Program-made: the position numbers and the translations under genes
Part shown: positions 8,149 to 8,770 of the stretch, in pieces
Position numbering within the stretch: the first letter of the stretch is position 1
How the letters are laid out: each line of letters begins with the position of its first letter
Assembly (NCBI RefSeq): GCF_053078305.1
Contig: NZ_CP166879.1
Reading direction: 5' to 3' (one strand)
DNA: 64,000 nt
Notes under the pieces: generated by a model
Databases searched by the model: none
Told to the model about the DNA's origin: nothing
Seen by the model: the letters and a program-made list of their open reading frames with translations, nothing else

Positions 8149-8583
8149 TTACGATCGTAAACTATTTTTTCGCTGATAAAATACAGAGGTTCTCCCTCCC
8201 GGCAATTCACGCTCAACATACCGATCCATCTCAAGCCTCACTCCCAGCATCATCAGCATGCCTTCAACAATCCCCTCCGCTTTGTGAAGGCGTTTACCTA
8301 TACAGGTGTCAGAGCACCCATGTTTCCGTGCCAGCGCCATGAACGTCTCCCCCAACACGTAGTAATCAACCAGCAAGTCATGCAGATCGCGATTGTTCCG
8401 GTAAAGGCGGGCTATGCACCCGCATATCACCATCGCATCATCGTCACAGCACTGTGGACGTGATTTTACTTTTTCGGGGATCAGTCCCTTAAATCCGGCA
8501 GCAATGGGCGACCATGTAACATCCTCATAGTTATTTGCCGCCCATGCACCCCAGCGCTCAAGAACCTGCCGGATATCACGCAT
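8149..8583 (-). CDS. Q: Late-gene antiterminator Q
   Basis: 144 aa from [24 protein letters not shown]...; cysteine cluster; immediately upstream of stx1A; start chosen at internal ATG 8583 to avoid a 100-bp overlap with the upstream ORF. Confidence 0.7.
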
Positions 8584-8770
8584 CAGTATCTTTACCCCAT
8601 CCGCGGTGAACCATAAGAACACCGTTGACGATAGCGTGTCTTTTCCCTTCTTTATCGCCAATGTATTTTCTGACTGTGGCACGATTGCAGTTCAGTATTC
8701 GGGCTACCTCTGTCTGATTTCCATATGCCTCAACGAGCATGTCAGGAATGGTTTTTACTGTGAACGTCAT
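8576..8770 (-). CDS. Small helix-turn-helix protein
   Basis: 64 aa with HTH-like [20 protein letters not shown]; overlaps Q start by 8 nt. Confidence 0.45.

Follow-up and report, generated by a model that had tools for sequence, protein, structure and literature searches.

The product of the phage lambda gene ninH is a homodimer, which in vitro binds duplex DNA and bends it in a Fis-like manner (Chakraborti et al. 2020, PMC7166090). NinH prefers a degenerate G-N13-C motif akin to the Fis site, its over-expression is toxic, and it needs residues N18, R30, T32 and K35, the equivalents of N73, R85, T87 and K90 of Fis, together with H45, H55 and R56 (PMC7166090). As cited in that paper, ribosome profiling by Liu et al. 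(2013) found lambda NinH to be expressed from 2-5 min post-induction, and the precise deletion of lambda ninH reported by Tarkowski et al. (2002) results in small plaques. In EDL933 exposed to ciprofloxacin, ninH of the Shiga-toxin (Stx) prophage BP-933W ranks with the most strongly induced phage transcripts, with a 100-fold value in the S1 table (PMC11125564). Here we describe the ninH region present in a stretch of 64,000 nucleotides (nt) of contig NZ_CP166879.1 (RefSeq assembly GCF_053078305.1), referred to below as the window. In this region, a small open reading frame (ORF) of 64 amino acids (aa) with a helix-turn-helix (HTH) runs into the gene of the antiterminator Q, whose longest reading frame reaches far back into the small ORF. 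The original prediction left two options, namely that Q starts at an internal ATG, or that the locus shows unusual overlap or frameshifting, and stated that the HTH ORF would be an artefact if Q were translated from the upstream start.

A lambdoid Stx1 prophage has the 3' end of its ninR (delayed-early) operon in this region, and we are nearly certain that this is the ordinary ninG-ninH-Q end of such an operon, with Q being a 144-aa protein of the q933 type that starts at ATG 8583. The 64-aa ORF is ninH, a real and well-known lambdoid phage gene that has been characterised biochemically and is routinely annotated. ninH and Q are two separate genes with a short stop/start overlap, in an operon whose genes are joined by short overlaps, and this arrangement with its 8-nt overlap is already known and routinely annotated in Stx phages. 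The features concerned are the following (CDS, coding sequence; SD, Shine-Dalgarno sequence; pN/pS, ratio of non-synonymous to synonymous polymorphism):

8149..8583, minus strand: Q antiterminator CDS, q933 allele, 144 aa, start ATG 8583 (PF06530; 100% identity; pN/pS 0.16)
8576..8583, minus strand: stop/start overlap ATGCGTGA, with the Q ATG at 8583-8581 and the ninH TGA at 8578-8576 (sequence)
8576..8770, minus strand: ninH CDS, 64 aa, Fis-like HTH DNA-binding protein (full-profile match to PF06322; public annotation; pN/pS 0.18-0.25)
8584..8682, minus strand: upstream extension of the Q frame, 33 codons from GTG 8682, an ORF-finder artefact (pN/pS 1.34-1.36)
8595..8602, minus strand: SD-like GGAUGGGG within the ninH 3' end, 11 nt ahead of the Q ATG (duplex energy -6.2 kcal/mol)
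8767..9336, minus strand: ninG (rap) CDS (PF05766, E 1.3e-72; 564-567 nt in annotated relatives)
8775..8780, minus strand: SD GUGAGG of ninH (duplex energy -7.9 kcal/mol; identical in lambda)

According to both the ORF list and a reading of the sequence, the 64-aa ORF runs on the minus strand from ATG 8770 to TGA 8578-8576, as had been predicted. The Q frame, which ends at 8149 on the same strand, encodes 177 aa when read from GTG 8682 and 144 aa when read from ATG 8583. The 8 nt that the HTH ORF was said to share with the chosen Q start can be read directly at 8576-8583, and the overlap with the longest Q frame, put originally at about 100 nt, measures 107 nt (8576-8682).

The assignment of the small ORF is based on its match to the Pfam family PF06322 (Phage_NinH), with an E-value of 1.8e-38 and a score of 130.7 bits against a gathering cut-off of 29.8. 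In this alignment, residues 1-58 of the ORF cover positions 1-58 of the 60 positions in the profile. The predicted HTH is recovered in weak matches to HTH_17/HTH_28, and in a marginal match of NinH residues 9-37 to the Fis HTH (Fis residues 63-92). None of the NCBIfam models matches NinH or Q. Comparison of the translation with Table 1 of PMC7166090 shows that the seven functional residues of lambda NinH are all kept (N18, R30, T32, K35, H45, H55 and R56), and pN/pS over the whole ninH gene is 0.25. The position is also that of a ninH gene: the order is ninG (PF05766), ninH and Q (PF06530), in the ninR region and ahead of the late regulator, and comparable neighbourhoods are found in lambda, P22, HK620 and Stx phages. 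As to whether the HTH ORF is a gene or an artefact, the original prediction was right in allowing for a real gene, but did not recognise it as ninH; because ninH is a named, characterised and routinely annotated gene, the either/or puzzle had in fact already been settled.

The ninH gene studied here is close to that of lambda, with 80% aa identity over residues 1-60 and about 88% identity at the DNA level, and in both cases it directly follows ninG in the ninR operon through an ATGA overlap (here the 4 nt at 8767-8770 that join the ninG stop to the ninH ATG) and is preceded by the same SD. The two proteins differ in length, 64 aa here versus 68 aa in lambda, and the last six residues (GKDTDA) are different because the 3' tail of the gene is set by the downstream module. 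They also differ at position 29, which is Asn here, as in Fis (N84), and Ser in lambda NinH. Furthermore, lambda ninH is followed by ninI, whereas ninH of the window is followed by Q, and the ninI phosphatase is absent. The likeness to E. coli Fis (PDB 1ETQ, 3IV5) consists of the HTH alignment and of the Fis-like DNA binding and bending of lambda NinH. However, the N-terminal beta-hairpin arm of Fis is missing from NinH, and NinH dimerises by means of a C-terminal extension (PMC7166090). What NinH and Fis have in common is a domain, not family membership.

The downstream gene matches PF06530 (Phage_antitermQ) with an E-value of 2e-50 and 170.1 bits (cut-off 26). All 144 of its residues are identical to those of ADW65735.1, the "q-933 allele" of HQ993497.1, so that this Q is identical to the deposited allele of Q933, the antiterminator of Stx2 phage 933W and relatives (LeJeune et al. 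2004, PMC3320398). Of the alignments with Q alleles that had been proposed as a check, the one with the q933 allele gave 100% identity and the same ATG start. The same ninG-ninH-Q order and the same 8-nt overlap are present in the Stx2a phages PA2 and P27 and in the gene list of EDL933 BP-933W. In contrast to Q933 in Stx2 phages, Q of the window precedes stx1A instead of stx2A. Phage PA2 has three tRNA genes between Q and stx2A, whereas tRNA genes are absent from the whole window and thus from the interval between Q and the toxin genes. The Q21 protein (PDB 6P18 / 6JNX) belongs to the same Pfam family and shows homology over residues 8-86 (E 1.7e-7) at low identity; it is the solved member of the family, and the structure search found no structure for the Q933/Q82 branch. 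A sigma-70-like promoter sequence (TTTACG-16-TATCAT, 8161-8134, minus strand), detected by a consensus scan, overlaps the Q stop, and a strong hairpin resembling an intrinsic terminator (AACCCGC...GCGGGTT followed by a T-run, 8103-8084, minus strand) lies between Q and stx1A. The two sites, both of them consensus matches, are probable candidates for pR' and tR' ahead of stx1.

The polymorphism of the disputed 99 nt upstream of ATG 8583 bears on where Q begins. We collected 83 loci, comprising 80 IMG/VR contigs, two annotated records and the window itself, and calculated Nei-Gojobori pN/pS for these 99 nt using the 17 distinct 195-nt ninH alleles and, as a second set, 26 ninH+Q haplotypes. In the NinH frame, pN/pS was 0.22 (17 alleles) and 0.18 (26 haplotypes); in the frame of the Q extension, it was 1.36 and 1.34, respectively, and in the third frame 1.39 (17 alleles). 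Where the long Q frame covers ninH, the NinH frame gave values of 0.10-0.22. Consistent with this, variable sites among the 17 alleles fall mostly on third positions of NinH codons (37, versus 16 and 14 at the other two positions). Q proper, from ATG 8583 onwards, has a pN/pS of 0.16 (26 haplotypes). As purifying selection on the disputed 99 nt is seen only in the NinH frame, the 177-aa "Q" is an ORF-finder artefact. The start codons tell the same story: the ATG at the overlap is kept in 83/83 loci, GTG 8682 in only 33. Pairing with the 3' end of 16S rRNA was calculated for each candidate start. The 20 nt before ATG 8583 give a duplex of -6.2 kcal/mol, which is among the top 17% of local 20-mers, compared with -7.9 kcal/mol before the ninH ATG, and no SD was found by this measure before GTG 8682 (+0.1 kcal/mol), TTG 8661 (+0.2 kcal/mol) or GTG 8622 (-0.6 kcal/mol). 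It should be noted that the ORF from the Q ATG has only 17 codons (MRDIQQLLNRRKGKNET) in two of the IMG/VR loci (L003-L082), and is cut to 56-126 codons in a few others, which suggests that Q has been disrupted or replaced in some prophages.

The boundaries of the Q family point to the same residue. Positions 1-118 of the 118 in PF06530 align to residues 34-151 of the long ORF, and residue 34 is the Met encoded by ATG 8583. With the 144-aa Q as query, tblastn retrieved homologues with identities as low as about 39%, whose alignments begin at residue 1 or 2 of the query. Five distant ones, in the range of 40-80% identity, were inspected: Lambda_ev058, PPyecE_EH1910, cdtI, APSE-5 and SfII. Four of them have ylcG, ydfU or an HNH endonuclease gene ahead of Q, none of which is related to ninH, with 17-85 nt in between; in APSE-5, no gene is annotated directly before Q. 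Four of the five are annotated as starting at the residue that pairs with M1 of the query, and APSE-5 starts one residue before it. Because these homologues have unrelated upstream genes, the N-terminus MRDI(Q/R)xVLERWGAW is a property of the Q family that is independent of ninH.

Public annotation agrees with this start. The 1.3-kb block was found in 383 phage records; among 5,426 complete E. coli genomes, 1,228 carry it. A Q of 435 nt and a ninH of 195 nt with an 8-nt overlap are annotated in PA2, PGAP RefSeq (strain FHI_NMBU_10, 99.6% identical), P27 and phiSTEC1589-Stx1c. YYZ-2008 (NC_011356.1) and HQ993497.1 have the same 435-nt Q start and leave ninH unannotated, and the long form of Q is used in none of the public records examined (PA2, PGAP, YYZ-2008, HQ993497.1, P27 and phiSTEC1589). 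The unannotated ninH appears as a 183-nt gap before Q in NC_011356.1 (L089, 905-1087), and lies at 385-576 in HQ993497.1 (L090). The lack of ninH in the YYZ-2008 and q-933 records is an omission of annotation, not a biological difference. Among chromosomes, the ninG-ninH-Q block has its closest relative, at 99.6% identity, in NZ_CP046539.1 (L002, locus 1-3050). In this locus, Q is followed by a DUF7661 gene and a gene for a SASA-family esterase, and not by stx genes, which implies that the q933 module is also present in non-toxigenic prophages.

A further line of evidence comes from the junction with lambda. The DNA similarity between the two ninH genes extends through GGATGGNGT(G)AAAGA...GATGCG and then vanishes: when positions 8575-8605 (minus strand) of the window are compared with lambda (L083, 1205-1235), the similarity ends just after ATGCG. 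In lambda, the equivalent ATG is the start of ninI, the 221-aa phosphatase of PDB 1G5B, and here it is the start of Q. One initiation region therefore serves ninI in lambda and Q933 in the window, with a clean mosaic junction at the start codon. As the similarity stops at the start codon of the next gene, the module boundary is located at ATG 8583, and the preceding 99 nt are part of the ninH module, no matter which gene comes next, which is incompatible with a coding role for them in Q. The choice of ATG 8583 made in the original prediction is thus borne out by the Pfam boundary, the N-termini of homologues, annotation, selection, the SD and the mosaic junction, all of which agree.

Some observations weigh against this view and deserve to be considered together. 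The alignment to the PHROG Q profile reaches four residues upstream of Met 8583, and Q21 has about 12 more N-terminal residues than Q of the window; from the PHROG extension and the longer Q21 it follows that N-terminal length varies in the wider Q family. The Q frame is the +1 frame of ninH and is free of stops over the last 36 ninH codons (8584-8690, minus strand), and a stretch of this length was present in only about 5% of synonymous NinH recodings made with local codon usage (P ~0.05; median 10 codons). At 11 nt, the spacing between the SD-like element and the Q ATG exceeds the usual optimum, and independent initiation of Q may consequently be weak. Finally, the ciprofloxacin proteome of EDL933 contains a value for Q and none for the NinH protein of 933W (PMC11125564), so that translation of NinH in an Stx phage is not proven by that dataset.

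It is the open +1 frame that lends some credit to the idea that Q starts at GTG 8682 as a 177-aa protein and that the 64-aa ORF is spurious: the frame has no stop in the 36 codons before ATG 8583, contains GTG, TTG and GTG codons that might serve as starts, and exceeds most recodings in length. The same open frame, together with an A-run followed by a rare AGA codon at codons 43-44 of the ninH allele of the window, could be taken to favour a programmed +1 frameshift within ninH, which would generate a NinH-Q fusion beside the two separate products. However, the stretch is likewise open in lambda, for 35 codons (L083, 1120-1224), where it runs into ninI and not into Q, and it closes within 8-15 codons in the divergent ninH genes of P22, HK620 and Sergei, which argues that the open frame is an inherited accident of the lambda/Stx ninH lineage. 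A long Q is moreover difficult to reconcile with the selection acting on the NinH frame and not on the extension, with the clear membership of the small ORF in the NinH family, with the loss of GTG 8682 in 50/83 loci, and with one locus that has a stop codon in the extension frame 9 codons ahead of the ATG. The upstream candidates also lack an SD, Q homologues that do not follow ninH have the same MRDI start, and the long form is not used in the records examined. On these grounds (selection, start-codon conservation, SD, Pfam boundary, homologue N-termini and public annotation) the 177-aa Q was rejected, and we consider its existence extremely improbable. A fusion by frameshifting seems to us just as far-fetched. 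The only plausible +1 slip site, GGG AAA AGA at ninH codons 42-44, is not conserved, being replaced by AAA AAG, AAA CGG or AAA ATG in 30/83 loci; the 96 nt of RNA around the junction fold no better than shuffled sequences (z = 0.02); the segment beyond the slip site, which would be translated in the Q frame, has a pN/pS of 2.99; and a -1 shift from ninH meets stops. The hallmarks of frameshifting or dual coding, i.e. a conserved slip site, a stimulatory structure and constraint on the second frame (pN/pS 1.34-2.99), are accordingly missing, and the fusion was rejected as well. The unusual overlap or frameshifting envisaged as the alternative to ATG 8583 finds no support, given a mostly absent start, the lack of an SD, an unconstrained extension, a slip site that varies and an unstructured junction.

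With Q starting at ATG 8583, the question becomes how ribosomes reach this codon, and the annotation is the same whichever answer is given. Ribosomes that end ninH at UGA 8578-8576, 5 nt past the Q AUG, would re-initiate at this AUG, a step in which the distant and moderately good SD-like GGAUGGGG may assist. The synthesis of Q would in this way be translationally coupled to that of ninH. The 33 open codons upstream are just the +1 frame of ninH and form no translated part of Q. We believe that Q translation is probably coupled to ninH in this manner, though with some reserve. The competing explanation is that Q initiates independently on its own SD and that the 8-nt overlap merely reflects compact packing. 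This is supported by the presence and duplex energy of the SD-like element, by the P27 record, in which a ribosome-binding site is marked 6-10 nt ahead of the Q ATG, a few bases downstream of GGAUGGGG, and by the fact that Q homologues in other phages are preceded by intergenic gaps and overlap nothing upstream. However, the 11-nt spacing is long, the exact 8-nt stop/start overlap is kept in all 83 related loci, and every ninH examined overlaps its downstream gene: by 23 nt in lambda (ninI), 20 nt in P22 (ninZ), 4 nt in HK620 (lambda-type Q) and 8 nt in Sergei. The small plaques attributed to the lambda ninH deletion, as cited in PMC7166090, could also reflect polarity on downstream genes. Independent initiation is to us a credible possibility that falls short of being likely.

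The original prediction had suggested that the HTH protein could regulate late expression, an idea for which we find no support. The Q family of the window also occurs without ninH, behind ylcG, ydfU, an HNH endonuclease gene or no annotated gene immediately upstream, and NinH in other phages adjoins the unrelated lambda-type Q (HK620), ninI, ninZ or a small hypothetical gene. The two genes are thus not inherited together, which argues against a dedicated NinH-Q partnership; for this lack of co-inheritance, the idea that NinH is dedicated to regulating Q or the late genes was rejected. A literature search combining NinH, Shiga toxin and antiterminator found nothing. A more speculative scenario, which we put forward tentatively and regard as unlikely, is that Q933 is made largely by termination-reinitiation from ninH, that the dose and timing of Q, and with them those of Shiga toxin and lysis, would be set by how fast ninH is translated, and that NinH, as a Fis mimic, might in addition modulate phage or host transcription.

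As for the surroundings, a Pfam scan identified ninG (PF05766), a DUF1367 gene and a primase-like gene upstream of the ninH-Q pair. The start of ninG is ambiguous, since it may be GTG 9336 or one of the ATGs 3 and 6 nt downstream (the protein begins V/M-M-M-Q-Q). The gene is annotated as 564 nt by PGAP and as 567 nt in PA2, and GTG 9336 has no SD ahead of it (16S 3'-end duplex of -1.5 kcal/mol). The replication module (9787-12268, minus strand) encodes a primase-like protein with a zinc ribbon, DUF7146 and Toprim, and is not of the lambda O/P type; a further ORF of this module has counterparts that are annotated in relatives as DEAD/DEAH or ATP-dependent helicases. Downstream of Q, the stx1A reading frame occupies 6696-7652 on the minus strand. 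The ORF finder uses TTG 7652 as its start (MCNMKIIIF...), and the in-frame ATG 7643, three codons on (MKIIIFRVL...), looks like the real one.

In summary, the result confirms the 144-aa start of Q and matters little beyond correct annotation: ninH should be annotated, and some public Stx-phage records omit it. The dose of Q controls Shiga-toxin expression. If the translation of Q depends on that of ninH through the 8-nt overlap, changes in ninH could alter toxin output, and if the coupling or Fis-mimic reading were true, ninH would be a hidden determinant of the amount of toxin that is produced.
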